A stretch of 64,000 bases of DNA from Cenococcum geophilum (lineage: Eukaryota): the NCBI GenBank assembly GCA_050273025.1, contig CP158635.1, positions 17,980,001 through 18,044,000 of the forward strand, given 5' to 3'. The translations under genes and the position numbers were made by a program. Positions within the stretch are counted from its first letter, which is position 1. Each line of letters starts with the position of its first letter. The notes under the pieces were generated by a model. It was not told the DNA's origin. It saw nothing but the letters and a program-made list of their open reading frames with translations, and did not search any database. Shown here one piece after another: positions 5,500-62,280 of the stretch.

Positions 5500-6665
5500 T
5501 ATTAATTTATCTAGTATGGGGTTTTATAAACCCCATTCGCGTAGTCTATATTAAACTTTTACTTACTCTAGAATTTATATTAGATATCTTACTAAAAATT
5601 ATTTTAATTAGAAGAGTAACGTCCCTCCCTACGGGTTAAGAAACCCCCCACGCCGAGAAATATAAGGGGTACTTTAACTTTAAGCAACTTAAAATTTATA
5701 CACACGTTAATATTTACTATAGCCCTATATAGGTTATATGCTATAGGTACTCCTAGATATCTAGGACCCTTTCTATCTAAAAATTACGTTATATATCGTC
5801 GCCTTCGCGCCTAGTTCGTAGAGAACCTCCTTTTATAGTAATACAGAGTCCCTTCCCTACAGCACTACCGTTAAGCTCTTACTACTCTATAATATTTATT
5901 AACGGTCTTATCTAAACCTTAGAACCTTATTACAATATTAGGAGGTTATTATTAGCCTTATATCTACTATAGCGTACAAATTTATACAATATTGCCACCT
6001 CTATTAGTACTTCCGATTAAAGTAGCTACTAATCCTAGCTAGTGCAAAACAACCCTATACGTCTTATATAATCACCATAGTGTAATTTAGGCTTAGCGTA
6101 GAATATAATACAGTTAGCTAGATATCTAATACCGTATTCCGTAAGTGCGCTAAACCCTTATACCAAGATATACGGTAGACCCCTTTATACGGATAAATCC
6201 GGAGTGCATATTTTTATAGGCTAAGCGTCTTTAAAACTTAGGATTATCTTCTTCTATAATAGAGCTATCATTCTAACGTCCCTCCCTACGGGGCGAGAAA
6301 CCCCCCGCACTAAGATAAATCCATCCTTTATACGTCCTAAGTCCTTCCCTTATAAGTCTTCAAAGCTTTAACCTATATAACGTCCGTCCTACCATAGCGA
6401 GCCACCCACCAAAACGAGTCAACTTCTTAGTATACCTCTTAAAAGTCTCTCCCTTGTATATTAATAAAATTATAATTAATATATCGCTATTTTAAACCCA
6501 TTTCCCTTTTAATATAGCTATACGCAATAAATATTACCCTATAATTGCTTGTACTAACTAAAATTTTCTATGCGTTAAAATTTCTAGCTTTGTATTTTCC
6601 CCCCTGCAAATTTATAAGCATAAAGCTTTACTATTATTTTGGAGCCTAGAAATAAAAGCCATTTT

Positions 6666-9600
6666 TGTAACGGAACCTTATAGCAAGAACTACAATAGGC
6701 TCGTTAATGGGCTAGGTGTATAGGTGATGCAAATTAAAGTTAACAACGAATAATAACTAGTGGAGTAGTTGCCTAACAGATTAACTCTAATTGTATTCTG
6801 AGAATTACTATAAGGAAGGAACTATCTAAGTAGGGACTGTGGTCCTTTAAATATATAACCGTACTTCTAAGAAATCCTTCTTATATATAATGTACGTCTT
6901 ATATATAAGGTACGTAAGTTCCTTTTATTCCTCTTATTTAATATATAGCATGTTATATAACCTTAGTTACTATTCCTCGTTATATAGTTCTACCGGCTCT
7001 ATTCTAGACCGTGCCTAGATTAACTAACTAGCTTCTTCTAACTTCTCTCCTAGTAGTTATAATATTATACTTAAAGCGTCCATAACACTATCTCTTTCCT
7101 CTTTATCTTTATCTTTAAAGATTCTAAATATCTCTAAGTTATTTACTAGAGGTATAATATCTATCTAATTAATTTGGTTAATATTATTGCTTATTATACT
7201 TAAAGCAATTTCTTCTTTATACGCCCAACGTCGTACTCGCACTATTGCTGTAATATTATCTCTTAGTAAGATTATACCGTCTCCGTATTCTTATTATTTA
7301 AAAGAGGGGTTAGTTTATATTGCGTTGGCGAACCTATCTTTACGATAACCATTTTCTTGCTTAGAGTGCACTAAAGCGAATATTTATTCGTCCTGCAATG
7401 TTTACTTTACCTCTAATGCTAAATATACGCGACCTATTACTCTTAATAGTCGTCTAGTTCCCTAATTAATTTATCTTAAGGTCTTATATTTAATCTGCTG
7501 CTACGCGGCTAGATAGTAAACTGTCTTAAGCCCTTACTAAGTTAAAATGTTCTTAGGATGTAGAATAGAAGGCCCTAGATACTTATATCGCGGCATTTAC
7601 TTATTTACTTTATCTTAAGAAGGTTTATAAGAAGGTTTATTCTAAGAAGTAAAAGCTTATAGAATAGGGTCTATAGGAACTTAGTAATAAAAAAACGGAC
7701 TTTTTTTTAATAGAGAAGGAAATAGATCTAAGTAGTTTGGTAACTGCTCTTCCTAGGTCCCCCTTAGGTAACTTATTCTTTAGTAATCCTTTTTTTTAAT
7801 ACTGCCTGACCTAATCTCTTCTAATACTCCTATACCTTTCTTATAGCGTTCTTTAAATTTTCTAATAGCTCCTAGGTAGTCTTAGTGTAGCCTATTTACT
7901 TAACCTTGTACTATATTTTATTATTAATGTCCTTATAACTAATAATCTTTAAAACTTACTATTCGTCTTCTTCCTACCCTTTATATATATCTACTTTATA
8001 AACTAGTGGCTTAATATTCCTATATACTAGCTCTAGCATTATAATATGCTATATAGGGTAGATCTTTATCTTAGCTAGTAGGTTTAACTTAAATATAACT
8101 GGTGAAATCCTCTATATAATTTTAAAAGGTCTTAGTCTAACGTAGTCTAACTTCTTACTTAGTCATCAACTCTTAAAAATTTTGTGTAGTAGCTATACTT
8201 TATCTCCCTCCTTAAGATCTAGTCCCTTAGATCTCTTAGTATTATAATACTTTTTTATTCTCTTTTGTACCTTCTTTACTAATTCTATAAGGTCTATATA
8301 AAGATTTATTAACGTCTTTATTCTTTCTTTAGCTATACTACTCGTTTTCTTTACTTATCGTAATAACAATAATATCCTTAGCTTATATCCATGATTTGCC
8401 TTAAATAGTGGTATGCCTATTCCTTCTTAAGGTGTTATATTATATGCAAACTATATAACTAGTAGTAATAATACCTAATTATTCTGTGCGTGATTAATAT
8501 AATATCTTAGATACTATTTTAGTGTTTAATTTAATCTTTCTATTTAACTGTCTGTCTGCGGATAATATACGGTAGAAGTTACTACTCTAACTCCTTACTC
8601 CGCTAAGAATACCTCCTAAAATGCTACTATAAATCTTAGATCTCTATCTAATATAATTTTACTTAGTGCTCTATATCTTGCGAATACTTCTTTAATATAA
8701 ATTCTAGCAATATCTTCCGCTAAGATTTCTTCTGTATACGCTATAAAGTATCCCTACTTTGTAAGCTTATCTATTATTACTAAGATCGCGTTATAATTTT
8801 GCCCGGTAATAGGGTTTTTTAACTTTAGTAACTTAATAATAAAGTCCTATAATATGACCTCTTATAGTCTCTCTGGTGTTTTAATAGGTTATAGCCCTCT
8901 ATACGGCTTATGCCTTATTAGTTTATTCCTTTAGTAATCTAGATATTCCTTTATAACTTTTCGCGTTAAGCCTTAAATTCCGTTAATAATATACTTCTCT
9001 TAGAGTCTTAATACTAGGCCTATAGCTCCGTTATATCCTTAAGTTAATCTTTTATAAAATTCTTTTATAAATTGCTCCGCTATGCTTTTTAGGATATACT
9101 TTACTTTACGATTTTTGTATATATCTATTTATAAATCTTCTAGTTATGCTTTTAAAATTCTTTATACCTAAAAGCTTTTTAGTATCTTATAGACTCTATC
9201 TTATTCCTCTTAAGTTATTATAATTTTTAGATAATTATACCTAATTAATCCGTCTATATCTTTTCGCAGTAAAGCCCCTAATGGCTTTTTATTGTTTTAT
9301 AGTTTAGCCTTATAACTTAGAGCATCTATTCGCGTGTTATCTATACCCTTAGTATACTAAATCTTAAAATAGTATTTTATAAGCATCTCTGCCCATCTAA
9401 CTTATCTCTAGTTAAGTTCTTTTATTATTAGGAACCCCATTAGGTTCTTATAATCTATCTTAACTATAAATAGTTTTTCCACGCCTTGCAAGAATGCTCT
9501 CTATTTCTTTAGTGCTGTAACTATACCTAATAACTCCTTATTGTAGATGTTATAGTTTAACTCTAGTAGTATTATCTTTTAACTATAGTATACCACTAGG

Positions 9601-12600
9601 TGCTATCTATCTTAATACCTTTATATAAAGTATGCCCCTAGTATATAGTCTAATGCATCCGTTTCTATAACCGTCTCTAGTCTTAATTAATAGATTTTAA
9701 GAACTAGCTCCTGGGTAAACAACTCCTTAACTTTCTTAAAGAGTTCTCTCTGTTCCTTTCCCCATGCCTATAGTTTTTCTTTCTTTGTTAATCGCGTAAA
9801 TGGTTTAATATCCTTTAACTATTGCGCTATAAACCTTCTGCAGTAATTACAAACCCCTAAAAACATTCTTAACTATATAATATTCTCTAGTTCTTACCAA
9901 TTCACTATAGCTTTAATCTTCTTTAGATCTATACTAGGTTAGCTTAATTTAATAATAAATTTAATAAAATTAGTCTTCCTTATAAAGAACTCGTATTTCT
10001 TAATTGCTACTAGTATTTATTCTTTCTATAGTCTCTTTAAGACCCATTTAACATATTCCCCGTGTTCTTCCTTAGTTATTAAGTAGATAATAATGTCGTT
10101 AAGGTATACTATAATAAATTCATCTAAGTGCTCTCCTAACACATTATTAATACGCTTTTAGAATGTTGCTAGTGCGTTTATAAGCCTAAACTGCATAACT
10201 AATAGCTTATATAGTCCTTTCTTTAACCTAAAGGCTGCCTTCTATTTATTGCCTTCCTTAATTCTAATCTAATAGTACGCCTATCTTAGATCTATCTTTA
10301 TAAAGATTTACGCATTGCCTATCCTATCTTAGATTTCGCTAATTAAGGGTAAAGGATACCTATCCTTCCTAGTAATGCTGTTTAACTATCTATAGTTAAT
10401 ATACAGCCTTAGTTTACCATTTTTCTTTAATATAAATAGTACTGGGTAACCCGCTAATAACTGCAATAGTCTAATATATCCCTTTTATAGGTTTTCCTAG
10501 ATAAACTCTTTTAGTACTCTACCCTCTTCTTTAGTAAGCTTATAGATTGGAAAGAACCTTAAACTTATTCCTAGTTCTAATTCTATCTTATAGTCCTATA
10601 CTATATAATCTACTAGCTTTTTACTTTCCGGTAACTATAGTTTCTAACCATACTTATAGTATCTCTTTAGTACGTAACTTAAGCCTTTCTTTATTTCTTT
10701 ATAGGTCGCTTCTACTTAGTACTATACCAACTTAGCTTATTGTTATATCTTGCGGCGTTAAGTATCCCTAATATTAACCTAACCTATAATCCAATTAATC
10801 TTTAGATTGTATTCCCATAACTAAGGCATTTTTAATACTGCCTTATCCCGTCCTAATAGTAGGATATTAAAAGATATCTTAATCCGTCTTCCCTTAATGG
10901 TTAACTAAATAGGTCCTATTTTAAGATTAATAATCCCTCCTTTATAGGCTATTAGATCTCCTAAAATTATAACTAATAGGTAAGGTTACTTCTTCTATCT
11001 ATAAGGTAGTCCTATTCTTTTAACTGCTGCTAGTAAGATATAGTTTTGCGTTACTCCACTATCTATTAGCGCTTTAAACTACTAATCTTACTATTTAATT
11101 TATAAATTTAAGTGTCGTCCTTAAATTCCTTTAAGGGTCTAAGGCTCTACTACTGGCTCCCTTTAGTTCCGTGGGCCTCTACTTTTCCTAACTATTAGCT
11201 ACTTAATCCTATTACGCTTGGCTTACTCTTTAGCTAATACCTAGTTTGTTTTTTGTCTTTAATATACTATAGATATATATTCTCTAGATATTCCCACCAC
11301 TATTGTCTATCTAAGCATTTTTCTATAAGGAATCTTCCTGGTTAAAGTATTAAATTTCCTTCCTCTTAAACTTCTGCTAGATGCCATCTATGCATATATT
11401 TAGCATTCCTATACTATTACTCGTTTATTATCCAGTATATCCTTATAGGGTATTTCTAATTCTTTTCCTTTGGATTCTTATACATCTCGCATATATTATC
11501 CACGTATGCAATCTATAATAGCGTATAGTATGCTGGGTGCTTTAGGTTAACTCTTAACTCGTCTTTATCTTTAAGTTTAAACCTTTATTATGCTAATCTA
11601 AATGTTATAACCTTATTCGCAGGTACTAAAATACGCCTTTCGCTTCTTTAGTCCTCTAATCATTCTTCTAGATCCTTTAATATTATAATTAAGGCTCCTT
11701 TAATATACGTTATAGCCTTTTCTATAATTAGGTGGTCCTGGATAACTCTTTTATCTAACTATATATAGAAATCTTCCTACTTATCGTTATGCCTTTGTCT
11801 ATACCACTTTTGGTACAGCTACTAGAGTATATACGGCTTGTCCGTAAGGAAGTATCTTCTTATTACTATATTATAACAGCCCTTTATATATTATTCTTTA
11901 AACCTAGTAAGGATCCCTAGATCCTCTTTATCTTCTAGTTCGGTAAGCCACTTAGCTCTTAGTATGCCTACCCTAGGCCTATTAGTAATTCTTATACTAG
12001 TGCCCTATCCCTTATACGTCCCAATATACTAGATCTTTTATCTAGTTTCTATTCTCGCTATGCGATAATTCTCTGTCTAAATTCTTTTATAGTTTCTTTT
12101 AGTTTGCGTCTTACGCTTAGATCCTTAAAGTCTTCTTACTTCTTAATCTTAGTATTAATATTTTAATCTTTAGGCCGAATACTGTGTTCTCCTAGTAGGT
12201 CTTCTAGGTCTATATATCTGTCTCCTAGTCTAGTTACTATTTATACCGCAGATTCCTTAATCTATAAAGAAGCCTCTTGCCTCTTATTTATGGGTGTCCT
12301 TATTTATACTCTAAATTCTTAACCCCTTTAGATTCTCGATCCCAAGCTTGCTTTTATCTTAAGCCTTACTCCAGCCTTAGTCTAACTAGGCTTACTTAGT
12401 GTTCTTATCTTATCTTAAGAGTCTTAAATTTTACTTATCTTGTCTTAAGAGTCTTATGTTTTTAGGAAACTTCGTCCTAAGCTTATTTATATATTACTAA
12501 ACTAAGCCATTACTCTACTCTATCGGTTATCGTCCGTTATAGGTCCTTAAGCTTACCTTATCTCATCTTAAGAATCTTGGTCGTCTTTTATCTCATCCTA

Positions 12601-14420
12601 AGAATCTTAAGCCTTTGGCTTTTTGCCTTTATTAAGTGCTAAAGTAGTTCGCTGCCCTACTTCTCTTACGTCTCGCGAAGCGATAGACATTATATCTAGT
12701 AGGGTTTTAATCCCTACTAATGTTCCCTATTCTATAGTAGAATTATCCTCTACTTTTGGTGTAATATCTCTTAGGTCCGCATACTCCTAGTAAGCTGCCT
12801 TTATTACCTCGTCGTTACGAAATACTTCGCCTATATTAAAATCGTCGTCCTTAATATCCGATCTGCGAGCTAGTTCATTAGTTCCTCTATATCCTATAGG
12901 TGCTAGCTCTTATAGCTAGTAGCTTTTGCCATACTTAGCATCCTTATAAATTCGGTATGCGTTATTATAACAGAACGCAAAACTTTTAATTAAACATTCT
13001 TTCGTTCCTCGCAGTATATTATCGTCCCTCTATATATATATATCGTCTACTAGTCTTATACCTTTTACTATATAGTAACTCTGCCTACTTCTATAGTCTT
13101 TAATATAATAACCCTATTTTCCGCAATTTATATAAGCTCCCTCTTTAAACCATTTTTCTTGCTATAGAGTCCGCCTGAATATCTTCTACTGCTAAGATCC
13201 CTAATTCGGCCTCTGCTCCTTAGACCTTTAATTACTTAATCTTTATCCTTTAGGTTTCCACAGTTTTTTACTCTATCTCTTATAGGCTTTTTTAATACCA
13301 CTAAGGTCTATTAACTTTGCGCTATACTATAGTTTCTAACTTAGCTTTAGTTGTTATATACTCTACGCCTTATATAACTATAGAACTCTACCCTAACCTC
13401 TCTTAGCCTACTCCCTTTAGTAAATCTAATTATTAATCTTAATCGCTTAATCTATTAATTCTCTTAGGGTATCCGCATCTTTTATTAGAATAATCGCGTC
13501 CTAGACTTTAGCCTTAAGTCCTTATTTATACTATGCTATAAGCGCCCTATTATTCTACTCTACTTATATCGCTAACGTCTAGAACTACGTTGTATACTTA
13601 ATTGCTAAGGTTTATTATATAATGTCTTAGAGTTTCCTTTCTGCTATAGTTGTTACCTTCGGGTCTCCAAATATCTAGGTAAATTATTCTATAAATCCAT
13701 TCTAGCTTAAGAATATAAACCGTACCTTTTAGTTAGTGGTTATTATACTATTTGCTTATATCTCTATAAGATAAGGCTTAAACTATTTAAGTGCCCTTCC
13801 TATTAAGAACAGTCCTGTATACGCTATTAATCCATAAATATTGCTAGCTTTGCTCCCTCCTATATAACCTTAAAGTGCATTTATATAAGGAATCCTTTAA
13901 GCTTTAATCTCCCTCCTAAGTACCCCTTAATTAATAGTAACTTAACCTTTACTGCGCCTATCCCGTTAATCCTATTTTCCAATATTATATTATTTTCTAT
14001 TAACTAATTAACTATCTCTTATAGTTATCCAACCGTTATAGGTTACTATGAGTTAGTGTCTACTATACTAGTGTCGTTACCTAACCTTAAAGTAGTTACC
14101 ACCGTTAATAGCGTTATAGTGGCTGCTTTTAGTAGCATATTATTCGACTCTCTATATTAGATACTATAACTAGGTAGTAATTATATAATAGAACCTTATA
14201 GTAAGAACTACGGTAGGCTTGTTATTAGGCTAGGTATATAGGTAAAGTAAATATAGAAGTTAACAACGTAATAATAACTAGTGGAGTGGTTGCCTAATAG
14301 ATTAACTCTAATTATATTCTAAGAATTACTACAAGGAAGGAACTATCTAGGTAGGGATTAAGGGTCCTTAAATACACAACCGTACTCCTATAAAATCCTT
14401 CTTATACGTAATATACGTGT
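6666..14420 (-). mobile_element. RIP-degraded chromoviral Ty3/gypsy LTR retrotransposon (copy 1)
   Basis: 422-bp 3' LTR at 6666-7087 (TGTAAC...ATAACA) with an adjacent polypurine tract (7088-7105 on the minus strand). The 5' LTR starts at 14184 and is truncated near 14420. RT VYLNDIIIY (~10110-10085), integrase YPQTDS*IERLN (~8565-8530), chromodomain ~8000-7850, gag ~14140-13100. Confidence 0.92.
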
Positions 14421-14670
14421 GCTCTATCTACTCTGTTACGGATTATACAGATCCTATAGATTATTGACCTGAGGTACGAGTGGTCTATATTTTCGGGTCC
14501 TGGATTTCAAACCCTTGCCAAGCCGGCTTTTAATTGGTCCAAAAAAAAACTGCGGGCGGTATCTACCTGTAGAATACACGTGACGAACATCAAAATATTT
14601 AAGATCTCACTATTAATAAATCAACCTTTTTATTGACATCTCTATTAATACTACTATATGCGTCTTAACT

Positions 14671-17600
14671 ATGGTAGAACCTGCTCTAATTAAGTGTAGT
14701 AAGTGCTGTTTAATACAACCCCGTATTAATTTTATTAAAAACGGCCCATCTACTAAGCTTTTAAAGTAATGTTAATTGTGTTGGTTAAAGGCGCGTTTTC
14801 CCTGTATATTTTTTCTACTTTTACTTACTTTCCTAGGGCTCTAAATATGATTTAAATAGGCGGAAAGCAGAGCTTGGTTCTATTAAGACTCGTCCTATAA
14901 AGCGCTAGTAAAATGCTTTACCTAAAACCGATACTGAGGACGTCTTCTTACCTCGCGGCTAGAACAGTTAAGATACCCCTGAAATAGCTTAATGGCGGAA
15001 GACAATTAGGGTAATATAACGGGAGCACTGCATTCTTAATCGGCGGGGTAAAGCTTACTCGCCTACTCCTCCGCTATATACTACAGATAAAGCTCCATAC
15101 AGTAGAAGAAGCACCCTAGATGGCCTAAATACGTCCTTGCCGGAACTAGCTCCTATGCCTGCTTTACCGCTAATACCTACCCTACCACTAATACCACCTT
15201 TCTCGCGGTAAGCTCTGACTACGGCTACATTACTACCCGTTTCGGCTGTTAATTGGGAGCGAATTAAGAAGTTTAGGAGTATACTATAGGCTAAATGTAT
15301 GAAGACGTGTAGTTGTTGTAAGGAGCGGTGGTTCTAAATGGGCCTAGCTACGGAGGGTAACAATATAGGTATATGCAAAGCCTGTATTAAGGACGCCGAT
15401 AGCCTTAAATATCCAACCCTTCCTCCCCTGTTTGGTGAAAGTAACGGGCTCGATCCGGGGCCTGTTTCTGGCTTCCTACCTATACTTACCGCGGTGGAGG
15501 AGCTTCTGATTGCGCGCGTATACGTTTATCTGCAAGTCGTGCGTGTACGCGGCCAGTAACATCGCTATACTGGCTATGTCTGCTGCTTTGGCTAGAACAC
15601 ACTAAAGACTTAGAGGCAGCTACTACGGCTACCTACTGAACTCGATATACTGGTTGTGAGGCCTGCGGCAGTAGAGGGTAGCGAATACCTAGGTTAGCGG
15701 TTTACTAAGCGGTATACTATAAGGCGCTCTGCTATAGCATAGTGGCTTTACTTTCTAAAGGCCAATTATCCTAATTATCGCGACGTTAAAATATGTAGCA
15801 CTCGGCTTACCAGCTTACCCGAAAATGGCTCTATATTAGATTAGCTACCTTATATTAACGAGTTAGAGTCTAATTCTAGTGGCCTAACGGCTTACCCTAC
15901 TACTCCTATGCAACGTCCTTCTGCTATTAATCCTCTGCCTACCGAGCTTAGCAGTAATATACTAGACGGTGAATTTAATGACGATGTACTGGATACTTTG
16001 GTTCCTGATTTAGTACCTAACCTTAATGAATTGGAGCTTTTAGGTCGCGAGGTTTAATACTAATAAGACCTACGAGCGGGCCTAGAGGTTCCCACTGTGC
16101 AATAGATACCTCTCTCTGAGCGATTAGCTAGCTTTATTATGCGCGGCGCCTTTCTTACTCTGTTTCCTTATAGTAAAGCTAATTTTAACATGCTACGAAG
16201 CCGTACAGTTACCCTGGCTGCGTACGCCAAGCATATGCTTAAGTATTAGGACGGTTGGTTTGGCCGCCACCCCTTATTTCGCTACTATGTGTTTAATCGG
16301 ATTATAAGAGAGTAAGCCCTTAACGCCACCCGCTTCCTTTGCGGCCGATTAAATAAGAATGGTCTATCTTTAGATAAGCTTAGTAATCTTATAAATAGTA
16401 ATAGGGGTAGCTAGTTGCTGAATAAGATTGTACGGCATATACGGAACCTTAAGGGCACTAGACCTTACTGGAGGTAGAAGAGAAATGAGCTTATAGCTTA
16501 TGCTAAGAATATTAAGAGCGGGTCTCTATTCTTTACACTTAGCGCTACTAATCTATATTGGTATGATCTACACTCTTATATACCTCTATTTAACGAATAT
16601 AAGGCTGCTAATAAGGCTTAGCGCTACCGGATTGCTTTTTAAAATCTTAACGATAATCCGCATATTACTGCTTACTGGCTGCATCGCTGCTTTAATCTGT
16701 TTAGGAAGCACGTACTTATAGGCCTATTTAATAGTACTGACTTTTGGTCTTAATATGAGTGGTAGGTATAAGGTAGCGGCTATATATATGGCTTTTTATA
16801 GAGTTTAACAGCCCTAAGGCCAGATTTATTAGCTAGTGACTTAAGGGCGGCTTTTGCTGAGTACTGGGCTACTTTTATATCCGTAATTAATCCTAATTAA
16901 TCTAGGCCTCCCGATCTCCAATATCCTTTTGCTCTTAGCTATGAAGAACAGCTTAATACTAGTGAGCTTTTTACTGCCTGCCTTAATTAATTTTAACGGT
17001 ACCGTAATTGCACCGAATCTTACTGCTTAAGATTGAAGAAAGGCTCCACTGGAGTAAAGGAGTGCCGCTTCTATTTTCCACGCTTTCTCCGTAATAAGGC
17101 CGCTGTATTAAAGGATTAAAATCCATATTACTGGACGTTCTGTCCATAGCGTAATAATAAGCTTCTTAATAGTTATAATGCAGCTATAATATTAGCGTGG
17201 ATGGCGAATATTAATACGTTACCTGCTATGAGTATATTAGTAATAGTTAACTATATAGGCAAATATTATAGCAAGGAAGAGAAGAAGTTAACTTCCTACT
17301 AGGAGTTACTCTAATTAGTACAGCCGCACGCCAATAGCCTTTATGCCTTTAGTTCGGTTGTGGCCAGGTTTATAAATAAGCTTATTGCTAAATGTAATTG
17401 GTTAGCGTAGGAGGTATGCTATTTACTTCTTAATATTCCCCTTTGCGAAGGCTCTAGGAATATAGTAACTTTAAACTGCCACTAGGAGGACGATTAAAGC
17501 GCTATGTATAAGCTTAATAATGGGCAACTAAGAGGGTGCGGACTGTCTAACTATAAGAAATATAAGCGCCGCCTAGATGGGGTAGAGGACGTTACTTTCC

Positions 17601-21108: not shown

Positions 21109-23187
21109 ACGTGACTCACCCCCAAGCGAGACAACCCCCCCAACGAGACATATGCACCCAAATACATTTATATTAATAATTAAGCCAACAACGCCTATAT
21201 TTAAAAACCAAATAGCCCAAATTGAAGCGAATACGCTTCTTATTACAGAAGAAAACGGCTTGGAAGTTTCCGGGTACGTTGTGGGCGTGATATTGCACCT
21301 GGCGTTGGCCAATTAGATGGCTTACCACCACACTCTTCTGAAGCTCCTTTCCAGATTAGCTTATCACCAAAGTCCTCCACAGGCTGAGCATTACACCAAA
21401 AGACGTGCGCAAAGGCTGCCCAGTCTTGATTACGTTCGCCAGGGTTTAATACTGATCTAGTATACAAAGCAACGCTAAGCTCTGGTAGAGAGGTCCCTTC
21501 CTCATACTCCTTTTGAGCTAACTTTTGGGCGGCGAGCTCTTGTTTTTCTAGGTCCTCTGCCTTTAATCTATCGACGTCTTCCTGGGTAAGGACTCTGCCC
21601 TTGCTAAGGAGTCTCCTACTACTTTTCTTATCCATTTTGAATGCTTGAAACTTCTTATTCTCTTCTCTCTGTATATGCGCATCAGTCGCAAAGCCTATAG
21701 CAGCTTTAAATAGCTTTTCAAGACGTCGTTGAATGGGGGATTCAAGCATACCGTCTAGTCGCTCGGTAGTTAATTCGGCAATCTGATTTCGTAGAGACTA
21801 AAGGTCCTCTACCGTTTTAGGTGTCCTTGGCGTTTGAGGATTTATATTCGTAATTAATTGTAGGCTTGCGGGGGGCTCTACATGTGGTAGGGTCTTCAAA
21901 ACAGCCGTAGGATTGTATGGTAGAAGACCTGTAGCTTTCCAGGCGTTGCAAATCGTCTCATGGGTGAACGCCTTTGTACGCGCCGTTGGGTAGAGCTTCA
22001 TAAAATACTCTTTGTTCACCCCTGTATGGCCATATCGACAGAAGTTGTCTACTTCTTCGCCGTAGTAGTGTTGAAGAGGTCCAAAACAGCCTACATCTAG
22101 TGGCTGAAGCTTATGCGTTGAATGAGGCGGGAGAGCTACTAGGACGATCTTGCGCGATAGTGCATACTGGATGAACTGCCAGGTAAGATGGCTCGAATGA
22201 TTATCCATTAGAAGCATACGGTAGCTTCAAATATTACCCTCAGCGTCCTCCACAAGCTGTCTCGTATATTTATCGTAGTGTTCGATGTAATGTAGGCCTA
22301 ACGAGTCGTCCGTCCAGCCATTAGTTGAGGTCGCATAGGCATATCCGCGAAGGCGCTCATCGTGCTCAGTAATTTAATACCAGGTCTCCTGGTGTTGCTG
22401 CCCCTTCCAAATTAAGAACGGAGGTAGGTAAGAGCCATCGGCGGTAATTGTCTCTATAATAGAGACTGACTCTCGAGATCCTGGTTGTCGAACAGTCCGA
22501 TTCTTTGACCTCTCCCTACTATTCTTGCCAGAGACGATTATTCGAGCCGTTGCTGCTTGGCCTAGCATAACCCCTTTCTCGTCAAAGTTGGCTATAAATT
22601 TTGAGTGCTTGATTGAATATTTGTTTCGTACGCTTCGAAAGAACTTAAACCAATCGTAGATAATGATTGGATCATCATTCCAGGCCCTCTGGCAATCTAA
22701 TTGACGACTTATAATAGTATAGAGCCCGTGGCGTTGTATAAATTTCACCCCCCAGTGTTTGCCTATTACCCTGCCTTCTGCCAAGAACGAGCTCGCCATC
22801 GCAGGAAGCATATTAACCTTTATCGCAAGGCCCCAGGACTGACATTCGTGTATCCATTTGACAATTTGATCCTCCTGATAAGGATGCAGTAGCGTTTTAT
22901 GAGCTAGGTGTCGAGGGAGACGCCCAGCAAGACGATGCGCAACGGTAGAATGGGGTAATGCGCGAACGCTGGAGGCTTTGCGAATTGATGGCTCAACGCC
23001 TGATTCGACGTCTTGTATAGCTTTTTGTATAGAGACTTCAGCTTCACGAGAACTTAATTGGGGAAGGGACATGTTGATTTGTACAAGGAATTTCGGGTTT
23101 GGGTGTAATTTGGGAGGGAAGAAGAAGAGCGCGTACGAACGCGCATGTCTCGTTGGGGGGGTTGTCTCGCTTGGGGGTGAGTCACGT
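21109..23187 (-). mobile_element. Full-length pogo/Fot1 (Tc1/mariner) DNA transposon, 2079 bp
   Basis: Perfect 43-bp TIRs ACGTGACTCACCCCCAAGCGAGACAACCCCCCCAACGAGACAT. TA duplicated at 21107-21108 and 23188-23189. Confidence 0.97.
21243..23072 (-). pseudogene. pogo/Fot1 DDE transposase (HTH_psq/CENP-B HTH + DDE_1) with three in-frame stops
   Basis: ORFs 22374-23072, 21798-22217 and 21243-21749 share one frame. Motifs NFDEKG, NGWTD, LLMDNHSSH and LPPHSTHKLQPLDVGCFGPL. The stops TAA, TGA and TAG are each one C>T from a sense codon. Confidence 0.93.
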
Positions 23188-25405
23188 TATTAGTTGATGT
23201 GGTGATATAGACAGTATTGGACGAGGAGACGGGCGAGAGAGAAGATAGAAAGGACGGAGGAGCCTTTGGTAGGTGTTAGTCGAGTAACGTTAATGGCTAT
23301 ATTATGGCTGCCTAATCTCCTATACTTATAGGCCTCCTCCCGTCTATAAATACTCCCTCCTTTATACCTTCCTTTCTTCTTTTCTTCTTCCTTATAAGAG
23401 CTAGAGGTGCTCTAATACTCCTTAGTCCCCACTAAGGGATTTATTAGTTAACGTGGTGATATAGATAGTATTGGACGAGGAGACGGGCGAGAGAGAAGAT
23501 AGGAAGGACGGAGGAACCTTTAGTAGGTGTTAGTCGAGTAATATTAATAGCTAGTTTTCGTCACCCAAAAATTGCGTTATGTGATGATATTTGGGAACGC
23601 AAATATATACCCTGTCCTATACTTATACTACTACTAAATATTTTAGATTTTGTATTTGGAGCTGCTTGCAATAGGCATTCCTAAGAGATCTGCCGGTTTA
23701 AAGCTCTACAATTAAATGTTGTTGACGTTTTATATAGGGGTCGTTGATTAAGCTCCTAGGATATGATTTTTAAAGTTTAACACCACACTAATATTATGAC
23801 CTTCTTGTAGTGGCTGAGCCACCCCTAATCTCCTCCCCTCCCTTTTCTCCCTCCCATTACTTGGCGCCAAGCTATTGTGTCGTTGCTAAGCCATCATGTT
23901 GTTGTACGTCCGAACTGGGTGGGTAATGACGTAGTTAATAGTTATTAGGTATTAAAAATATTTAGTATATAAAGCTTTAAATTGGAATTACAATCTACTA
24001 TATTATATCCTACGTAGAGGGCTCTGCATTAAAGCTCTGCAGTCTAAATATGTGCTATATTCGTGACTAATATATTCTTTAGGCCCGGCTCAAGTAGGGC
24101 GCCTCGGTTACTGTAGTAGATCCTTACCTAGTAGTAACTAAGGCGCCTTAATCTTACTACTACTTCTAAATTAAGCAAAAGCTCTATATAGGGGGGTCCT
24201 AGGGGGTCTCCCCCTGGAAAACCTTATCTCTATATATATTAATTAAAGTTTATATAATAAAGCTCTAAATTAAAGCTTTGGGTTAATTAATTGGCTTATT
24301 ATACTTGGGTTAAAATTTGCGTTGGGGGACTAACGTTCCGCATGTTATAGATTACCTCACGTGACTTCGGTTACCATTTCTCGTCACATGGTTCTATCGG
24401 CTCCATCCTAGTCCGTGCCTAAATCAACCAACTAGCTTCTTCCGACTCTTCCCCAAGTAGTCGTAACATCGTACTTAAAGCGTCCGTAACAGCAACGTGA
24501 TAGTTGTCACGGTACTGATCTGCACAGTACTAACAGCTGTACGATACTGTTTCCTACAGTATCGTACCCGGCCTACGGCCACGCCATTAACCGTTATCGA
24601 CGGCTACCAGTCATGGCAGAACTGCAAATAATAGGTCACGTGCTGACGCAGAGGCCTCGCGCTAAACGCACTGGCCTCTCCCCTTATTTCTTAACCGCGC
24701 GCTACGCGATACCTCTCTTCTTTACGCAACGTCTTAATATATCACTTGATACCGTATATAGCAACAATTGAATACTTCTATAGAAGTTCTTTAACCCTCG
24801 CTAGTAGCATCCGTGATAACAGTAAGATTTGTTGGTGTCGCAGGCCAGGTATTATCTTCACGAGCCTGAGGAAACAACTGTATTAAGTTAGTAATCTAAC
24901 TGTACACCTGCGGGCCGAAGTGTCCCAGATCTTAAATAAGAACAACGAAAAACAACGCTGCTGCTTGCCAAAAATTCATCTGACTTTTTGTCATTTCAGC
25001 ACGCCCAGTGCGACACTAAGCTTACACCCAAATAGGTTAGCCAATCTTGGCATATTATATCAGCAAAATCTTGCTCGGCTTAACGTCGGCTCAACTCTAC
25101 TCAGCTTTACACTGCCACTGCTTATGCGTCTGTCCACATCAGCAGCACCTGGGCAGGTGCTCAAACTTCAACCTGAAGGTACCTACCTAAGAACGCTCAA
25201 CCTTCCAAGGTCACCAGCACTGCCGGTCAGCATGCGGTGTCATATAATTTTGTACAATGCACCCTGAAATATCCTAGTTGCTGCATTCCTCATGGAAGCA
25301 CATCCCGCCCGCCACTCAAATGACTGCAAATTCAACACTGCTGACCTCCTTTCTCCATAGCCATTCCGAACACCAAACCCCGAAATAGTCTCTTCCAGTC
25401 TCAAC

Positions 25406-26583
25406 ATGGCCGCTCTCGCCGGTGCTCTCGGTTCTGTTATCGGTTACCTGGGCGCTGAAGTCGCCGAAACTCTCATCTTCGAGCGTCTCTTCTTCCCCGC
25501 CCGCTTTTACAATGATCTCACACCGCTTGTCCTGATCAAGCTCGTCCTGCTCTTCCCCATGGGCGGCCCGCTCCACCGTGCCGCGCTCTCGGTGCTCGAC
25601 ACTTTCCGCTCCCACGATCTCTATGCCGGTCGCCAGCGCGGCACCATGCTCGGCACCGCCTTCTTTGCTGACAGTGGCCTCAAGTACTGCGAATCGTCGC
25701 AAGGCCGGGCCGGGCCGAAAAAGGATACCCGCAATGCTATGTGGATGCGGGTTATGCAAGCAGTTCGGCGGCGAGGTGACGGCGCGGCGCGGAGAGCAAT
25801 GCAACCAGTGTACCAGCTGGGTCTGCGAGCCGGGTCTGTGCCGCGGCGTGTACGTGCAGTGCGCGAGGACTGCTTGACATGGCGGACAGTCGTGGGGATC
25901 TTTTGTAGTGAGCTTACGGCAGTGGCAGTGGCGCTGATCGCCGGACTCTACATCCACGTTCCATGGCTCGCTGGCTTCGTCATGGTACCGTTGGTGCTGA
26001 AGTTGCTAGCTGCGATCGTGGCAGTGAAACGTGAACACCTGAGACCAATATCAGAGAAAGATATCCCCACTCAGGAAAAGATTTTTGAGATCGATGACCT
26101 GGTTAGGGGATTCTTCATTATTAAAGGCTCCGAGGAGGCGGTATGTATTTGTTTGAATCCTTGCCTAAACATTATGGCTAATAGCACCCACAGGTTCTTC
26201 AATTCTTCCGTCACTACGCTCATCCGCTGCGGGATACCAGGTGGCGTGAGATCATTTCAATCGGAATTGCATACCTATTTGTCCTCTACTTTCCCGCGGG
26301 ATTACTAGCCTTGCTGTGGATGGATCAAGAGGCACAATACCTGTGGCTGAGCTACCAAATATACATTATAATCGCGATGCACTTGATAAGAGTGTGTGGA
26401 TTCAACGGGTGCGGTAGCACAGAAGAACGACTGGCTAGGTATTTAGAAATTGGCGAAGAGGTGTGGTTGAGTGATTCAACTGGGAATGGGGTTGCTGCCA
26501 CACTGGTGGTAGAGGAGGTAGAGAGTGTCAAGGTGGCAAGGGAGAAAGTAGATAGTATCTTCGCTACTTTGGAGGAGTGTTGA
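25406..26583 (+). CDS. Fungal hypothetical multi-pass membrane protein, 374 aa (exons 25406-26140, 26194-26583)
   Basis: A 53-bp intron GTATGT...GCTAAT...CAG (26141-26193) joins ORF 25406 in frame to VLQFFRHYAHP...LLWMDQ of ORF 26311. Several hydrophobic segments, GC-rich coding, no RIP stops. Confidence 0.88.
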
Positions 26584-26998: not shown

Positions 26999-29659
26999 AT
27001 GTCTCGGTCCTTAGGAAAGTGCATAGAATCGATTTTTGACCCACTGCCTCCCCTCCGTGGCTATGGGTATCTCGTTATGGTCTGGAAACTCTATCGACTG
27101 CTCGCGATTGGTGGCCGCGACTCGAAGCATCCACAGAAGGTTACCTTTCTACGACGACTTACCGACGTCGAGAAGCGAGTGCTCTACCTGCTCGAAGAAT
27201 GGTGGGACGGATGGATCAAAGAGGATATATTGACGAGATTTACAAAGGGCATGCTGTTAGCGTACGCTGTATTTGAACTACGCTACTACTACGAAAACGA
27301 AGAAGAAACCGCCGGATTCGAAGAGTTCTTGCTCGGGACGGATGACAAATCCCTTTATGAGACGGTTAAGAAACAAGTGCTCGAGACCCATGAGGGCGAG
27401 TACTTCACCTACGTTGCGATCCGGTCGCACCGTGAACGACAGAAGGGAGGCAGAGTGTATGACGACCCGATTTTGACGGACATCACCGCCTACAACCGAG
27501 AGCTCTTCCACCTGGCCAAAGTCGAGCTCCTGCTTGAAATATGTCCAGAGGATATGAGGACTGAGGAGCGCAGGTCGGCCGGCATCATGGCTGCTTGCCA
27601 GCGAGTCGCCAACGAGTGCGTCGCCAACGGCATGAAATTGATAGGCCAAGCAGATGAGCCAGAAGGGATCATCGTCCATATGGCTGGACGGGACTTGCGG
27701 GTCGCCATCAACAGCTCGCAGCTAAGGGAACCGTGGCCACGAGAGAAGAAGGCCATTGGACACTGCTACTACAATCCTGGAGCCGTTGTTGATGGCTGTC
27801 CATGGTTGACTACCAGTTTGGAAAAGCTGGAAGACGACTCGGACACATCCAGTGATGACAAAAACTTTGATTTGAGGGAAATCCTATGGAATTTGCAGCA
27901 ACTCGATCTGATGGGACCGCCCTACTACCTATGGAGCATCAAGGAGAAGAGGACTGTCAAGGTATCCGACCTAGGGATCTCACCAATGTATGCCATTATC
28001 AGCCACACCTGGGGCCGCTGGCGGATACCGGGTGAGAACATAGAGATTCCTGGAGTGCCCTGGGCCGTACCGGCGAACACTCGGTTCGACGTCGCGACCC
28101 TTCCCGCTATGATAGAGAATGCGGCGTTTCCAGAGGACTACGTTTGGATCGATCTGTTCTGCATCCCACAAGATCGTGATGATCCTGAACAGCAGCGGAT
28201 CTGCCGGATGGAGCTCATTCGTCAAGCCAACATCTTCCGGAATGCTGCGACGGCCGTAGCATGGCTTTTTGACGTCGAGGATTGGGGACCCACAGCGGCG
28301 GCGCTCGCCTACCTGGCCGTCGAGTTTCACAATAACTCCACCAACGAGGAGCACACAGAATCGATGCCGCTCTACAACCTGATTCTACAGGCTGCCGGTG
28401 AGCATGCGAACCGCCGCTGTGGCCTGCTAGAGGGCGACATATACGCGAAGAGCGGCGACGACGTCGAGTTCATCAGCTGGTTCTCATCGCTGTGGACTCT
28501 GCAGGAGGTATTGATGCGGCCGGACATGCTTCTGTTAAACCGCAACTTGGAGCCGCTCGTGGTGTGGCATGTTACCATGACTCTCGATACCATTGCCTGC
28601 CTAGTTATGTGCCGGAGTACTACATTCCACAACCCTAAGGATTCCAGATCCAAAGCTGAGAAACTGGAGGCGATACGCCAGGTCAGCATGAAGTTACCTT
28701 CAGGCCCGCGTGAGATCTACGTCCTCTTCAGCGTGACGGGGATGGTGCAGATTGCGCGGCCGTCTCGACTTTCTGCTCTGACTCTGGGCGGCAAGAGAGT
28801 TTGCAAACACTCACGCTCTCAGGCCATCATGTCTGTCACTGGCGCAACTCTGTGGTTTAGGCACAACGACTTCCAGCAATTCTCCGACCCCGAGTCACCG
28901 GATAACATGATTTTTGGTCTCTACGAGCCTGGATTTATCAATGAGCTCTTCCACCTTGTAGGAGGCTCCTTCTTCCTGTGCCGGAACGAAGGACCAACGG
29001 TGACAGCACCGCCGGAGACTGTTCACAAGGGCGAAACTCAAATCAGGATAACGCATTCAGTTTCCGGATCCATGCTGCCCTTCAGCCCCGGCTCGGCTAC
29101 ACGATTTGTGAGTTTCCCAGAAAAGCATCGCGAGCTCGTGGACCATCCGTCTGTTGCGGGTTGGAGGATCGGAATGGGCCGAGATCCCTGGACGGGCAAC
29201 AAGGGCGGCGACGTCCGTCTCCCGACTGTCGTTGTCTTGGCTGCCAACTGCGAGTGGGAATCTGAGCCGCCCGTTGTCCCGCAGGGCGAGGGCCAGCTGG
29301 AGTCGTCACCTCAGGCCGTTGGCGCGGTTCCTGAAGGCGCGAAGACCATTAAATGCCAGATTGCCCCCCGCGCCCGCCCCTTGAAGGGAACGGTACAAGG
29401 CAATATGCCGGGGCCCGAGTATGACGAGGGCAGCGTTATTGAGGTCGACGACGTGGGTATTGATGAGTGGGTGTCCAAATTCGAGTTGGACACGTTCGCT
29501 GTCTGCGTTATGAACAGCCGCACAGAGGTCAGAGGAGTGCTCCTACAGCGGCCGGGCTTTGGACATGGTCCCCTTATAAAGATTGGCGTTTTTGAGATAG
29601 AAGACGAGGAGGGCATTGAGTTACCCGACGCGTGTCGTGTAGACTGGACTGTGATGTGA
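26999..29659 (+). CDS. HET (heterokaryon incompatibility) domain protein, 886 aa
   Basis: Uninterrupted ORF with HET signature motifs YAIISHTWG, YVWIDLFCIPQ, IFRNA..AVAWL and WFSSLWTLQE (~27990-28510). First in-frame ATG at 26999. Confidence 0.93.
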   Translation: MSRSLGKCIESIFDPLPPLRGYGYLVMVWKLYRLLAIGGRDSKHPQKVTFLRRLTDVEKRVLYLLEEWWDGWIKEDILTRFTKGMLLAYAVFELRYYYENEEETAGFEEFLLGTDDKSLYETVKKQVLETHEGEYFTYVAIRSHRERQKGGRVYDDPILTDITAYNRELFHLAKVELLLEICPEDMRTEERRSAGIMAACQRVANECVANGMKLIGQADEPEGIIVHMAGRDLRVAINSSQLREPWPREKKAIGHCYYNPGAVVDGCPWLTTSLEKLEDDSDTSSDDKNFDLREILWNLQQLDLMGPPYYLWSIKEKRTVKVSDLGISPMYAIISHTWGRWRIPGENIEIPGVPWAVPANTRFDVATLPAMIENAAFPEDYVWIDLFCIPQDRDDPEQQRICRMELIRQANIFRNAATAVAWLFDVEDWGPTAAALAYLAVEFHNNSTNEEHTESMPLYNLILQAAGEHANRRCGLLEGDIYAKSGDDVEFISWFSSLWTLQEVLMRPDMLLLNRNLEPLVVWHVTMTLDTIACLVMCRSTTFHNPKDSRSKAEKLEAIRQVSMKLPSGPREIYVLFSVTGMVQIARPSRLSALTLGGKRVCKHSRSQAIMSVTGATLWFRHNDFQQFSDPESPDNMIFGLYEPGFINELFHLVGGSFFLCRNEGPTVTAPPETVHKGETQIRITHSVSGSMLPFSPGSATRFVSFPEKHRELVDHPSVAGWRIGMGRDPWTGNKGGDVRLPTVVVLAANCEWESEPPVVPQGEGQLESSPQAVGAVPEGAKTIKCQIAPRARPLKGTVQGNMPGPEYDEGSVIEVDDVGIDEWVSKFELDTFAVCVMNSRTEVRGVLLQRPGFGHGPLIKIGVFEIEDEEGIELPDACRVDWTVM

Positions 29660-29810
29660 TCGTTCTCTATGTTTTGCAGCTTGGTCTATGTAAGATTTGG
29701 TATTCATCACAGTTTGGACGGCTTCTTGCAACAGCCTATGGCCCGGTAGTTGAACGGCCGAGGTTGCGTACCTGTTGGGAAGTGATGGGTGATAGGTGTT
29801 TCATATGGCC

Positions 29811-30382
29811 CTAGATGAAATTTTCACCTGTTCCACTTCTGAAGAATAACTTTGCTTGACCGATGATGTCTATTGGGAACATGTTAACCCAAGGCTATTT
29901 TCAAAAAGAAGTGGAGCATTATTACCTCTAATTGCCTCTTCAGCCCACGGGAGTGGCCTTCTTGTATCTCCCATCCAATAGTCTATTAGGGCATCTTGAC
30001 GAAGCAGTTCCTGATCTTCCACCATGGCTCTAATAATGTCAAACATATCTTTGACTCCTTGTTTGAGATCCTCTCGCTGGGCGTTGCAGGATTTGTCGAA
30101 GAACCAGCGACGGTCTGGTACTATACTCGTTGGAGAAGCGTCAATTGATTGAAGGCAGTCTTTGGACAAATCGTCTGGATTGTCGCAACCTTTCTTGTCT
30201 TGGAGCCTTTCCCAGCCGATGTCATGAGGAGGTTCCATAAAACCCATGATGTCCATTCTAGCTGGAGGGAGATTGGGTGTGTCTAATGAATCAAGATTCT
30301 GGCACTCATCCCGTTTGTGCAGCACAGAAGCACTAGTGGCTGCTAAGAAACAAGTGAATAGAAAGATAACGAGACCTCGCAT
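29811..30382 (-). CDS. Small secreted protein (~171 aa), possibly a truncated metalloprotease-like/effector gene
   Basis: Signal peptide MRGLVIFLFTCFLAATSA, Kex2-like LHKR site and 4 Cys in the mature part. A probable 56-bp intron 29925-29870 (GTAATA...TTAAC...TAG) gives a last exon DIIGQAKLFFRSGTGENFI*. Confidence 0.65.
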
Positions 30383-30808: not shown

Positions 30809-31070
30809 TTAAAGACGCAACACAGAGCAATAGTCTTCCAGCCCCATCGCACCGATTTCTTGTTTTGCTGCTTCCATCTCATCCTTTCTCGGTCTATTTG
30901 AGGTTGGCTTCGTGGATGCAGGTTCCTTACGTTTACGACCTCGTTTCGTCCCTTCATCCGCCTTGGCCTTCTTCTCGTCGCGCTTCTTCTGTGCCTCAAC
31001 GATATCCTCATAGCTCATCACTTTCGCTTTGCCTATAACGGTCGATCTCGTAGATGTTCGCGTCCTGCTG
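30809..31070 (-). pseudogene. C-terminal fragment of a pogo/Fot1-type transposase
   Basis: STRSTVIGKAKVMSYEDIVEAQKKRDEK...EIGAMGLEDYCSVL resembles C-termini of fungal pogo transposases. No DDE domain upstream. Confidence 0.7.
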
Positions 31071-34000
31071 TTAGATCTGTGGCTGTGCAAAATCTTGGCA
31101 ATTGGGCCACAGCGATGATTATGTGAGGTGGGGTTGTTCGCCACTAGCCCGGATTGGTGATCGCTTCGATTGAAAGGTACCGATCGACCTGGCCACGTTG
31201 CATAAATCATCCTTACATGGCAGCTAAAGGGCTGATAATAACTCATCAGCGTGCTAGTGAGGCTCCAAGGCTTGGATACTACCATATTATGACTATTAGG
31301 AAGGATGAGAGCTCGGTGATAAAGCTGTGATGGAGGTGTCCCCTGACGCCACTAAAAGGAGGCTCTCCGTAAACCACGCGACGCGGCGACGCCAGCGTAA
31401 TTTTTAGTTGGGCGCTGTCCCTGGGGATTAGGGGTGGCCAAACTACAGGACTCCCACAGAATTAAAAAAAAATGAAGATGTGGATGGGACGCTGAAATTA
31501 CTCTAATACAAAGTACCTACGATTTGGCTCGCTACACAGGGTGGCTCGCGACATGGGGATAGATGTTAGTATTTTTCTTGAGGCATTTACACCTTAGGGA
31601 CCGGTTTGTAGCAAGAAAAATACAACGGTCTTGGTCATGCTGTTGATCGTTCCGTCCCCGGCATCCAAAACCGCGTCAGTTTTGGACCCCTGCTCCACGA
31701 CCGCCATCAACATATTCTTCAATTTCGGAATATTAGAAGGATAGTTCTATAAAGAAAGAAGATTACTCTGAATTTTAAAGACATTTAGCCCTTGCAAATA
31801 TGCACTCCGGATTTGTCCGCGCGTAGGGGCCAGTGAAGTGTCTTGGCATGAGATTTAGCGTGCTTACGTGGTGCGGTAATACACATCTCGCTAATGTCCT
31901 AGCCACCCAGCCGAGCCAGCCATGCAGCCGGGCTTACCAGATGACGTACGTAAATTACGCTACATTGATTATTACGCTACATTGATTACGTGGGCAGTGC
32001 GGGGTTGTTTTAAGCTAGCCGGAGTTGGGGCTCGCGTCGATTAGAGTACCGACCAGGGTGGCGACGTTGCATGAATTTGCGCGCCACAGCAGACACAAGG
32101 CTGATATAACTTCCTGGCATTGTAGTAAGATTCTGAGGCTCAGACAACACCGTTTATAAGTATTATAGAGTAGAAAAGGCTCTATAGTAGTGCTATAGGG
32201 AAAAAACTCTCTTGCGTTATAAAATGAGGCTCTTTATAAACTAGGCGCGAAGGCGAGGATATATTACGTAAATTTTAGATAGAAGGGGTTCTATACGTCT
32301 AGAAATAGCTACGGCATATAACCTATGCGTAGTTACAGTGAACATCGATATGTGAACAGATTTCAAGTTGCTTGAAGTTGAAGTACCCCTCATATTTCTC
32401 GGCGCGGAGGGTTTCTCGCCCCGCAAGGAGGGACGTTAATGCTCCGAAATTTGAAGATGTGTTAATGGCTGTAGTGGATCAGGGGTGCAAAGCTGTCGCG
32501 GTTCTAGATGCCGTAAACGGAATAATCGACGGCATGACCAAGACCGTCGTATTTTTCTCGCTGCAGACTCGTTCCCAAAGGAGAAATGTCTAAAGAAAAA
32601 TAATACATAGGCTATAACTTAATAGACTCACAAGGAAAAGAATTAAGATGCCTAAACAATGGATTTATCTCGGCGCGGGGGGTTTCTCGACCTGTAGGGA
32701 GGGACGTTATTTTATAAACTTTCTTTACTCTAAAACCTTTTTCCAGTTAACATATACGCAATTTCTCGTACGCTGTATACCATTGTCTTATCTGTTTAGT
32801 GTTGTCTTATTTAACATTTTGACATAGCTAGATCCTGTAAGAGATATTTAAATAGCAATAGCAAATATAAGGTATCTTGCGGTATTTAGCTTTAAGCACT
32901 CTTACTAATAGTGTACTTTAAGCGTGGATTTTTCGGCAAGCTATGCTGGTATCTCTCAACATCTGCAACATATATGCTCAGCTTTTCAGAAGAAACGGTT
33001 ATCTCTCAAGTCTCAGTATATATATTTTCTGCCAATGCTTTCGTTACTACCTATACCGGGTCATTAGACAAACTGCCGTCCTTATTACGGATTTTACCCG
33101 GCCGTTGTCTACTAAAGCTTCGTTTGGCCGAATATATAGCGATCTATATTATGGCCAGATTAAATAGCACAGAAAAAGTAGGTTAAATACTTTATTCTGC
33201 AAGCAAGAGTTTAATAGATATTTCTATAGTAGATGCGTTAAGAACTATATAAAAATTAGCTTAATAAGCTAGTTCTTTAGGTAATATAATAACGCTAACG
33301 GACTGCTAAAGCGCTGCCGATATTACCTCCGCCCGCTAGCGATACATTTTATATTACTAAGCGGCCGATTAACTACGGAGGCCCGGTACTACGCTAGCGC
33401 CCGTTTATTCTAAAACTTAGTAATTGGGACCTTAAGGACAATATAGCTAGAGCGTCTTTATAAAAGCAGGTTCCCGAAGTCGACCGCTTATTTGCCTTTG
33501 TTTAGGCCTTTTTTTTACGCCGGGCTATTCTTTAATAAATGTCCTCTGGATATAGTCTTTCTAAAATTAGATAATACCGTTCCTATTTATCATTAGCGAG
33601 GACAAGAGTATTCTAAGTTAATAATGATTCCTTACTAGGATCCTATCTAAAGGACGCCATTTCTTATCAGGAGAGCTATCGTATATAGTGTATTTGCTAT
33701 TAAACTCTACTATTATATAAATGTTCGCACTATTAGAACTAAGGTGGTACACTTTATTAAGAATAGTGTTCTTTTCTCTTCGCACCATTTTAACCAAGTT
33801 TTTCCGTGCTAACTAAGGAGTTATTATTAAGTGGCAAGGTTAGGGACTATAATAATAATATAAATAAGATAAGGTGATGTACGTGGAATAAAGTGCCGCC
33901 ATTTAGCTCTTTTTTCTTTATTACTGATAAGATTATATTAAATTTAAGGGGAACCTTTTTTAGTTAAGGGGATCTCTTTTGGCCGAGATTGGCCTCTTTT

Positions 34001-56110: not shown

Positions 56111-56111
56111 T

Positions 56112-62279: not shown

Positions 62280-62280
62280 C

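Follow-up and report, generated by a model that had tools for sequence, protein, structure and literature searches.

The stretch of DNA examined here, a window of 64,000 nucleotides (C1:17,980,001-18,044,000 of the 178-Mb, 7-contig Cenococcum geophilum genome; contigs are written C1, C2 and so on), holds a nest of transposons, X1, X2 and Y, formed by three successive insertions into TA dinucleotides, X2 being inserted at a TA within X1, and Y at one within X2. Six ends with terminal inverted repeats (TIRs) are present, each with a TA on its outside: 5619, 6276 and 6380 in a left cluster of 761 bp (5619-6380), and 31566, 32436 and 32707 in a right cluster of 1,141 bp (31566-32707). These positions and their TA flanks agree with an initial annotation of the sequence, which had also read every end as ACGT; the end at 31566 reads ACAT, a change of the type caused by repeat-induced point mutation (RIP), and it matches the end at 6380 only loosely. 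The TIRs of the group start with ACGTCC and its target is TA. Two types of end occur in the family, alpha (conserved over ~470 bp) and gamma (~760 bp), and a TIR of ~45 bp is common to both. The parts of the nest are the following.

5619-6275, forward strand: left arm of X1, a ~45-bp TIR with the alpha end (5619-6089) fused to an inner gamma part; outer TA at 5617-5618, duplicated TA at 6274-6275
6276-6379, reverse strand: gamma terminus of X2 (its first 104 bp), up to and including the TA that the insertion of Y duplicated
6380-6665, reverse strand: gamma-type end of Y (the transposase side in long copies), cut at 286 bp by a retrotransposon
31100-31566, reverse strand: alpha-type end of Y with its TIR; duplicated TA at 31567-31568
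31569-32436, reverse strand: main arm of X2, an inner gamma part fused to an alpha end; duplicated TA at 32437-32438
32439-32707, forward strand: gamma terminus of X1; outer TA at 32708-32709

When the window was compared with itself, alpha came first, and then a reversed gamma tip, Y, the reversed remainder and the gamma remainder. With the inserts removed, X1 (5619-6275 plus 32439-32707) measures 926 bp and X2 (6276-6379 plus 31569-32436, reversed) 972 bp; Y, with its TA-flanked degenerate TIRs at 6380 and 31566, spans 25.2 kb. The joined X1 and the joined X2, each carrying one extra base from the joining, could be aligned over their full length, with 690 identical positions, 164 transitions and 66 transversions, and the split junction of X1 occurs unsplit in X2, as had been quoted in the initial annotation. 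A TA stands on both sides of X2 and of Y, and a single TA is found at both empty sites in other copies. X1 restored with a single TA was collinear with all four distinct other copies tested (no break, or one 1-base gap), and X2 restored in the same way aligned without any gap to five of five, which bears out the earlier proposal of nesting by successive TA insertions with internal empty-site evidence. A degenerate pattern of the ends gave 39 matches genome-wide and none for the reversed control; the ends are therefore not due to chance. A search with the right-hand end cluster produced 51 matches from 40 of the 121 candidates scored.

Since X1 and X2 are homologous and lie in opposite orientation, an inversion between two intact copies was considered, as it had been from the outset. 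We regard it as very improbable. Homologous recombination of that kind yields two contiguous chimeras, and it leaves unexplained why TIR termini abut two different internal positions with a TA duplicated at each. Moreover, both halves of X1 differ from the copies on C2, C4 and C7 by 2-6% transversions, and all three X2 pieces by 6.6-7.7%, so that the pieces sort by subfamily and pair as the nest requires. The empty sites likewise contradict an inversion, and the collinearity across the joined junctions, whose failure would have spoken against nesting, was present in every alignment.

Nor do we give any real weight to an assembly artefact, which would be an extremely improbable source of such a pattern. 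It is true that the region is repeat-rich and that no single listed contig covers all of it, but the pieces are only 72-89% like other copies and are not collapsed duplicates. Short-read contigs of sequencing run X6 showed no differing letters across the region and crossed two of the three right-hand joints, bridging those between Y and X2 and between X1 and the flank; beyond the joint between X2 and X1 they extend by only 10 bases. Run X6, being letter-identical to the region, may come from the same clone as the assembly.

It follows from the nesting that X1 is older than the arrival of X2, and X2 older than the arrival of Y. The proposed order of events X1, X2, Y thus holds for X2 in X1 and for Y in X2; as a sequence of arrivals at this site it is one of at least two that fit, since X2 could have moved into X1 with Y already inside it.

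We next consider what kind of elements these are. Long members of the family measure 8-16 kb or more and are laid out as a gamma end, a transposase read inward from it, a variable interior and an alpha end of ~470 bp. In such copies (for example C2:1,624,772-1,640,952 and C1:20,853,328-20,866,143) the transposase is broken by RIP. Its best-preserved relative, at C6:8,494,807, has HTH_Tnp_Tc5 and DDE_1 domains with DD35D spacing (35 residues) and one stop, and a related TIR lies upstream of it. The family transposase, which may be of the Tan1/Aft1 kind, is ~28% identical to the Fot1-like element of the window described below. At C7:13425227-13431510 an inverted second transposase-bearing relative was seen within the interior of a gamma-transposase-alpha element.

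Of the family transposase, X1 and X2 have nothing and Y has only a C-terminal scrap. Both X1 and X2 join an alpha to a gamma end, at differing breakpoints, and are therefore end-only deletion derivatives of long elements. These differing internal breakpoints, and the fact that we saw no second copy of either, led us to reject their placement among the miniature inverted-repeat transposable elements. Further short derivatives of 0.42, 1.7 and 2.2 kb belong to the family; the miniatures of ~420 bp, at C4:18445048-18445466 and C2:7465791-7466208, consist of an alpha end and a short inverted alpha tip.

The ends of Y were compared with those of the family after removal of their first 40 bp. The end at 6380 scored z values of 4.0-11.7 against all eight gamma ends and at most 1.2 against five alpha ends, whereas the end at 31566 reached 14.9-26.8 against all five alpha ends and at most 1.7 against eight gamma ends. 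As both match in the correct polarity, Y belongs to the group as its third and more remote member and does not form a separate family. The TA duplication, the TIRs and a transposase with helix-turn-helix (HTH)/CENP-B and DDE_1 DD35D features tied to the ends are those of pogo elements (Tc1/mariner, fungal DD35D), and on sequence features X1, X2 and Y are classed as three subfamilies of one pogo-type (DD35D) cut-and-paste group. What had been described as a three-level nest of an X family in itself, followed by Y, is thus a nest indeed, with Y inside the same group and with a depth of six: X1, X2, Y, a Gypsy element, a Helitron-like element and a second pogo. The last three, together with the genes of Y, are found in its interior as listed here.

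6666-24491, reverse strand: RIP-killed Ty3/Gypsy-type long terminal repeat (LTR) retrotransposon (RVT_1, RT_RNaseH, SH3_Tf2-1), with LTRs at 6666-7087 and at 14184-14462 plus 24354-24491
14463-24345, forward strand: RIP-killed Helitron-like element in the right LTR (Helitron_like_N, PIF1, DUF6570), flanked by an 8-bp direct repeat
21109-23187, reverse strand: separate Fot1-like pogo with TIRs identical over 40 bp, a duplicated TA and HTH_Tnp_Tc5 and DDE_1 domains; two stops in the transposase
24505-24818, strand not assigned: solo LTR; the two copies of its 5-bp target duplication differ by one transition (read from the sequence)
25406-26583, forward strand: cargo gene 1, intact, probably with one intron near 26141-26194, of an ascomycete family without a Pfam name and with 61 relatives
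26999-29659, forward strand: cargo gene 2, intact, encoding an 886-amino-acid HET-domain protein
29870-30382, reverse strand: cargo gene 3, intact, 170 amino acids, a small orphan with a signal-peptide-like start (judged by eye)
30809-31099, reverse strand: C-terminal scrap of a family-type transposase, read away from the alpha end and thus opposite to the long copies

The core belonging to Y itself is ~7.0 kb and contains three open genes followed by the transposase scrap. Most of the window carries the RIP dinucleotide signature, and 25.0-31.3 kb is without it. Between the two Gypsy LTRs in Y there are 27 transversions and 5 gap blocks, and a target duplication is absent, in contrast to an intact copy on C7 with 0 transversions, 0 gap blocks and a 5-bp target duplication; the LTRs in Y would thus derive from two copies, and recombination between them may have deleted the transposase of Y. 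A second copy of this Gypsy element, inverted and more RIP-mutated, occupies window 56100-64000, with an internal inverted duplication near 58314-63995. The Helitron-like element contains a gag-like scrap (~20210-20600) and 254-bp tandem repeats (20729-23553), in one of which the Fot1-like pogo is inserted at a TA. Its 8-bp direct repeat is unusual for Helitrons, and at C2:14160337-14174024 a relative sharing its termini interrupts an alpha end without obvious duplication. Elsewhere in the window, a 200-bp inverted repeat, 87% self-complementary, lies directly left of X1 (5303-5501), a short diverged alpha-end piece is found at 40666-40789 (72% to 5641-5763), and 43940-50292 is an LTR element with 265-bp LTRs that are 97% identical and a GC content above its surroundings.

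In Y, then, a TIR pair with a TA duplication encloses intact non-transposon genes at a site whose empty form is known. Over 891 aligned residues the HET protein shares 80% identity with a protein of the distantly related fungus Hapsidospora chrysogenum. Its relatives number 193; among the 120 listed, seven others have 51-79% identity and the rest at most 38%, a pattern that suggests horizontal transfer. Hits in metagenomes stand at 77-79%; no metagenome locus was found for it. The product of cargo gene 3 is probably secreted, and the gene has no relative outside its own cluster. For two of the cargo genes, one of them reached by way of a partial near-identical hit, the 90% clusters contain named proteins that carry the label Cenococcum geophilum. 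Pfam scans of the interior of Y revealed no tyrosine-recombinase captain domain and the ends are TIRs with TA, so that Y does not qualify as a Starship.

Other members of the family also enclose genes. The interiors with an end on both sides number 14 besides Y (one without a gamma TIR is included, and two one-ended regions that were tested are excluded); remnants of HET, NACHT-ankyrin or WD40 type lie in four of them, and a metabolic fusion gene in one. An empty site is known only for Y and for an insert on C5 described below. Many alpha ends precede intact NOD-like receptor (NLR)-type or other genes. We also noted paralogous composites of several family ends at C2:7431123-7461656 and C6:14701226-14724923, with a common flank and an inverted inner segment; the copy on C2 has intact NACHT-ankyrin and HeLo-SesB genes that do not align to the copy on C6. 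At C3:2793538-2804066 an alpha end comes first and next an intact frame of 1161 codons, whose domains are FAD-binding, phosphomevalonate-kinase and phosphoribosyltransferase; beyond it lie a family transposase that is broken and part of a gamma end.

It could be argued that Y was an ordinary or short pogo when it entered X2 and that its genes came later, through retrotransposon recombination or another insertion. The chimeric LTR pair means that the interior of Y has been rearranged, the transposase scrap beside the alpha end is oriented opposite to the long copies, and the cargo is without a second copy, all of which fits this course of events. The genes, however, stand outside the LTRs and continue into the alpha end, no other element boundary was seen, and HET/NLR-type genes are also enclosed by other two-ended copies. 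We therefore think a late arrival of the cargo quite unlikely.

The initial annotation had also proposed that these elements prefer a particular target, and three further independent events elsewhere support this. A map of 800 kb of genome DNA contained 68 alpha pieces outside the window, five of which begin at position 52 beside an incoming TIR; after merging of paralogues they amount to three independent events at the same TA, located 7 bp inside the TIR, with 42-71 TAs per end. In the clean case, C5:3,927,131-3,936,240, both halves of the split end are present and the TA is duplicated. This insert is 9.1 kb long, its inverted ends are similar over ~300 bp and show no alpha or gamma match beyond the TIR, and its interior contains a RIP-killed HET-NACHT-like remnant. 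If insertion were random, the 34,315 bp of end sequence would be expected to take 0.02, 0.19 and 0.58 hits for 100, 1000 and 3000 events, respectively; the Poisson probability of at least three is 1e-6 for 100 and 0.001 for 1000 events, the number of events being an assumption and junctions having been inspected for some truncated alpha pieces only. At two other loci where gamma ends are cut near position 105 no incoming TIR was found. An insertion preference for the group's own ends is likely but not proven.

Taken together, the observations are probably best explained by a three-subfamily pogo group in which Y arrived as a unit with its genes and in which nesting in the group's own ends comes about by transposase tethering. 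Y would have arrived as one unit with three genes, moved by cut-and-paste through a transposase of its own or a sister enzyme. Two Gypsy copies would then have entered Y, recombined and removed the transposase, and the Helitron-like element and the second pogo would have accumulated afterwards, while RIP would have killed the repeats and spared the single-copy genes. Nesting itself might be brought about if transposase occupying the ends of a copy already in place drew the incoming complex to a nearby TA; in consequence the group would enter its own ends far above chance.

Several results weigh against this explanation. No stop-free family transposase was found among the 118 scored of 669 candidates, and the autonomous partner that had been sought was thus not encountered. 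The cargo and the exact ends of Y are single-copy, and no second Y was found by DNA or pattern search of the genome; the case for movement with cargo therefore depends on a single empty site. At 33 alpha ends the RIP index of the inner side, compared with that of the outer side, showed no polarity (11 versus 9 unmutated, p = 0.25), so the genes beside solo alpha ends (PNP-NACHT-ankyrin, HET-NACHT-WD40, HeLo and kinase) do not count as cargo and were dropped. As to the target, only one of the 35 pattern-found TIRs outside the window lies within a family end, and two of the three position-52 events are one-sided, with no matching first 51 bp in the DNA examined. The window's own insertions are at gamma positions 104 and 270 and not at alpha 52, and the Poisson probability rises to 0.02 if 3000 events are assumed.

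The first two of these points on the target would also be expected of a real nest formed without any targeting, in which ends collect in insertion-tolerant, repeat-rich accessory regions and the repeated TA is a good target or a scar of alternative transposition. In keeping with this, alpha ends are also interrupted by an unrelated solo LTR and by Helitron-like elements, and Y itself received four unrelated insertions. The DNA examined, however, contains only 34 kb of family ends, and of the whole 178-Mb genome they form a far smaller part; even so, three family-type hits fell on one TA of the 42-71 per end, in addition to the two in the window. We consider nesting without targeting unlikely, and retain the preference for own ends as part of the favoured explanation.

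It had further been suggested that any of the TIR pairs could mobilise the whole block. We see no indication that the outer pairs of ends, those of X1 or X2, ever moved the 26-27 kb as a unit, because the cargo is single-copy, the empty site of X1 was not found and no intact partner transposase was seen. Genome searches for the X1 empty site with each outer flank gave no informative paralogue; in one contig of sequencing run X14, ~67 bases ending at 32774 are joined to 33618, with ~12 kb of other sequence in front, which is a hint only. Eleven runs from eight samples with the same species label had next to none of the region's words. Runs X14 and X22 had no depth over the cargo, nor over much of the flank, so absence of the cargo is not shown, and run X9 contained short scattered pieces of the region only.

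A bare nest is ordinary, as nested transposons are common in RIP-affected fungal genomes. The present nest supplies, within one genome, an empty site for a 25-kb gene-carrying element tied to a defined DD35D transposase. Together with the enclosed self/non-self recognition gene, it points to a transposon group that enters its own ends and ferries genes. The family is thus a second candidate vehicle for fungal NLR/HET genes, with a specific TA just inside the TIR. A wider reading, in which a fungal pogo group homing to its own ends would be a Starship-independent shuttle of HET/NLR genes, building nested cassettes and passing between distant fungi, is tentative and in our opinion rather doubtful.

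In the literature covered (main texts; most subscription papers were outside this scope) we found no cargo-carrying or self-targeting fungal pogo family besides ToxTA, and no account of a self-targeting, HET/NLR-carrying pogo family. Insertion into or beside an end of the same family, in inverted orientation, is familiar from the double Ds of maize and from bacterial IS30 and IS911, which belong to other superfamilies; unlike the twin copies there, the nested members in this window are diverged subfamilies. On this subject the literature covered yielded only papers about alternative transposition of Ac/Ds. The published systems below are compared on the basis of the accessible text of each paper. 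The text of the C. geophilum genome paper gives counts of TcMar-Pogo and TcMar-Fot1 elements and has no match for 'nested' or 'cargo'.

The Fot1/Tan1/Aft1 pogo elements resemble the present group in their TA target, TIRs of 42-49 bp and HTH/CENP-B and DDE_1 domains with DD35D (PMC2836289, PMC7325037), DD35D being a mark of several pogo groups, the Fot1 clade included (PMC7325037). Described fungal pogo elements are ~1.9-kb units of TIR, transposase and TIR (PMC2836289), whereas members of this group reach 8-16 kb or more, with conserved subterminal ends of 470-760 bp and genes inside. A study of Paracoccidioides reported no Trem copies nested within other transposons (PMC2836289, PMC7325037). 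The Pack-Mariner and other Pack-TYPE elements of plants are, like Y, TIR elements that are non-autonomous, with ends that are conserved and an interior that was captured, and Pack-TYPE capture proceeds through fusion of neighbouring insertions; the examples described in the text covered are a few hundred bp long and contain gene fragments, whereas Y has three whole open genes (PMC8903248).

A role of transposons in the mobility of fungal NLR genes has been inferred in a study that names Starships (PMC13449251). Starships carry NLR-type genes and move them between fungi by means of a tyrosine-recombinase captain, with direct repeats, in contrast to the TIRs, TA duplication and DDE lineage of Y (PMC12506042, PMC13449251). 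The closest likeness, drawn by description only, is to ToxTA (formerly ToxhAT), a 14-kb element of Bipolaris, Pyrenophora and Parastagonospora (PMC12506042). Like Y it is non-autonomous, TIR-bounded and many kb long, with intact genes, nested elements and RIP, and its TA target duplication was proven by an empty site (PMC12506042). It differs in its 74-bp TIRs and in that its mobilising transposase is stated to be unknown, and current mobility has been shown for ToxTA and not for the Y group (PMC12506042). The ends of the Y group, for their part, are tied to a DD35D pogo, its HET-type cargo varies between copies and it nests in its own ends. If it exists, a homing pogo shuttle of this kind would provide the class of transposase still missing for elements like ToxTA.
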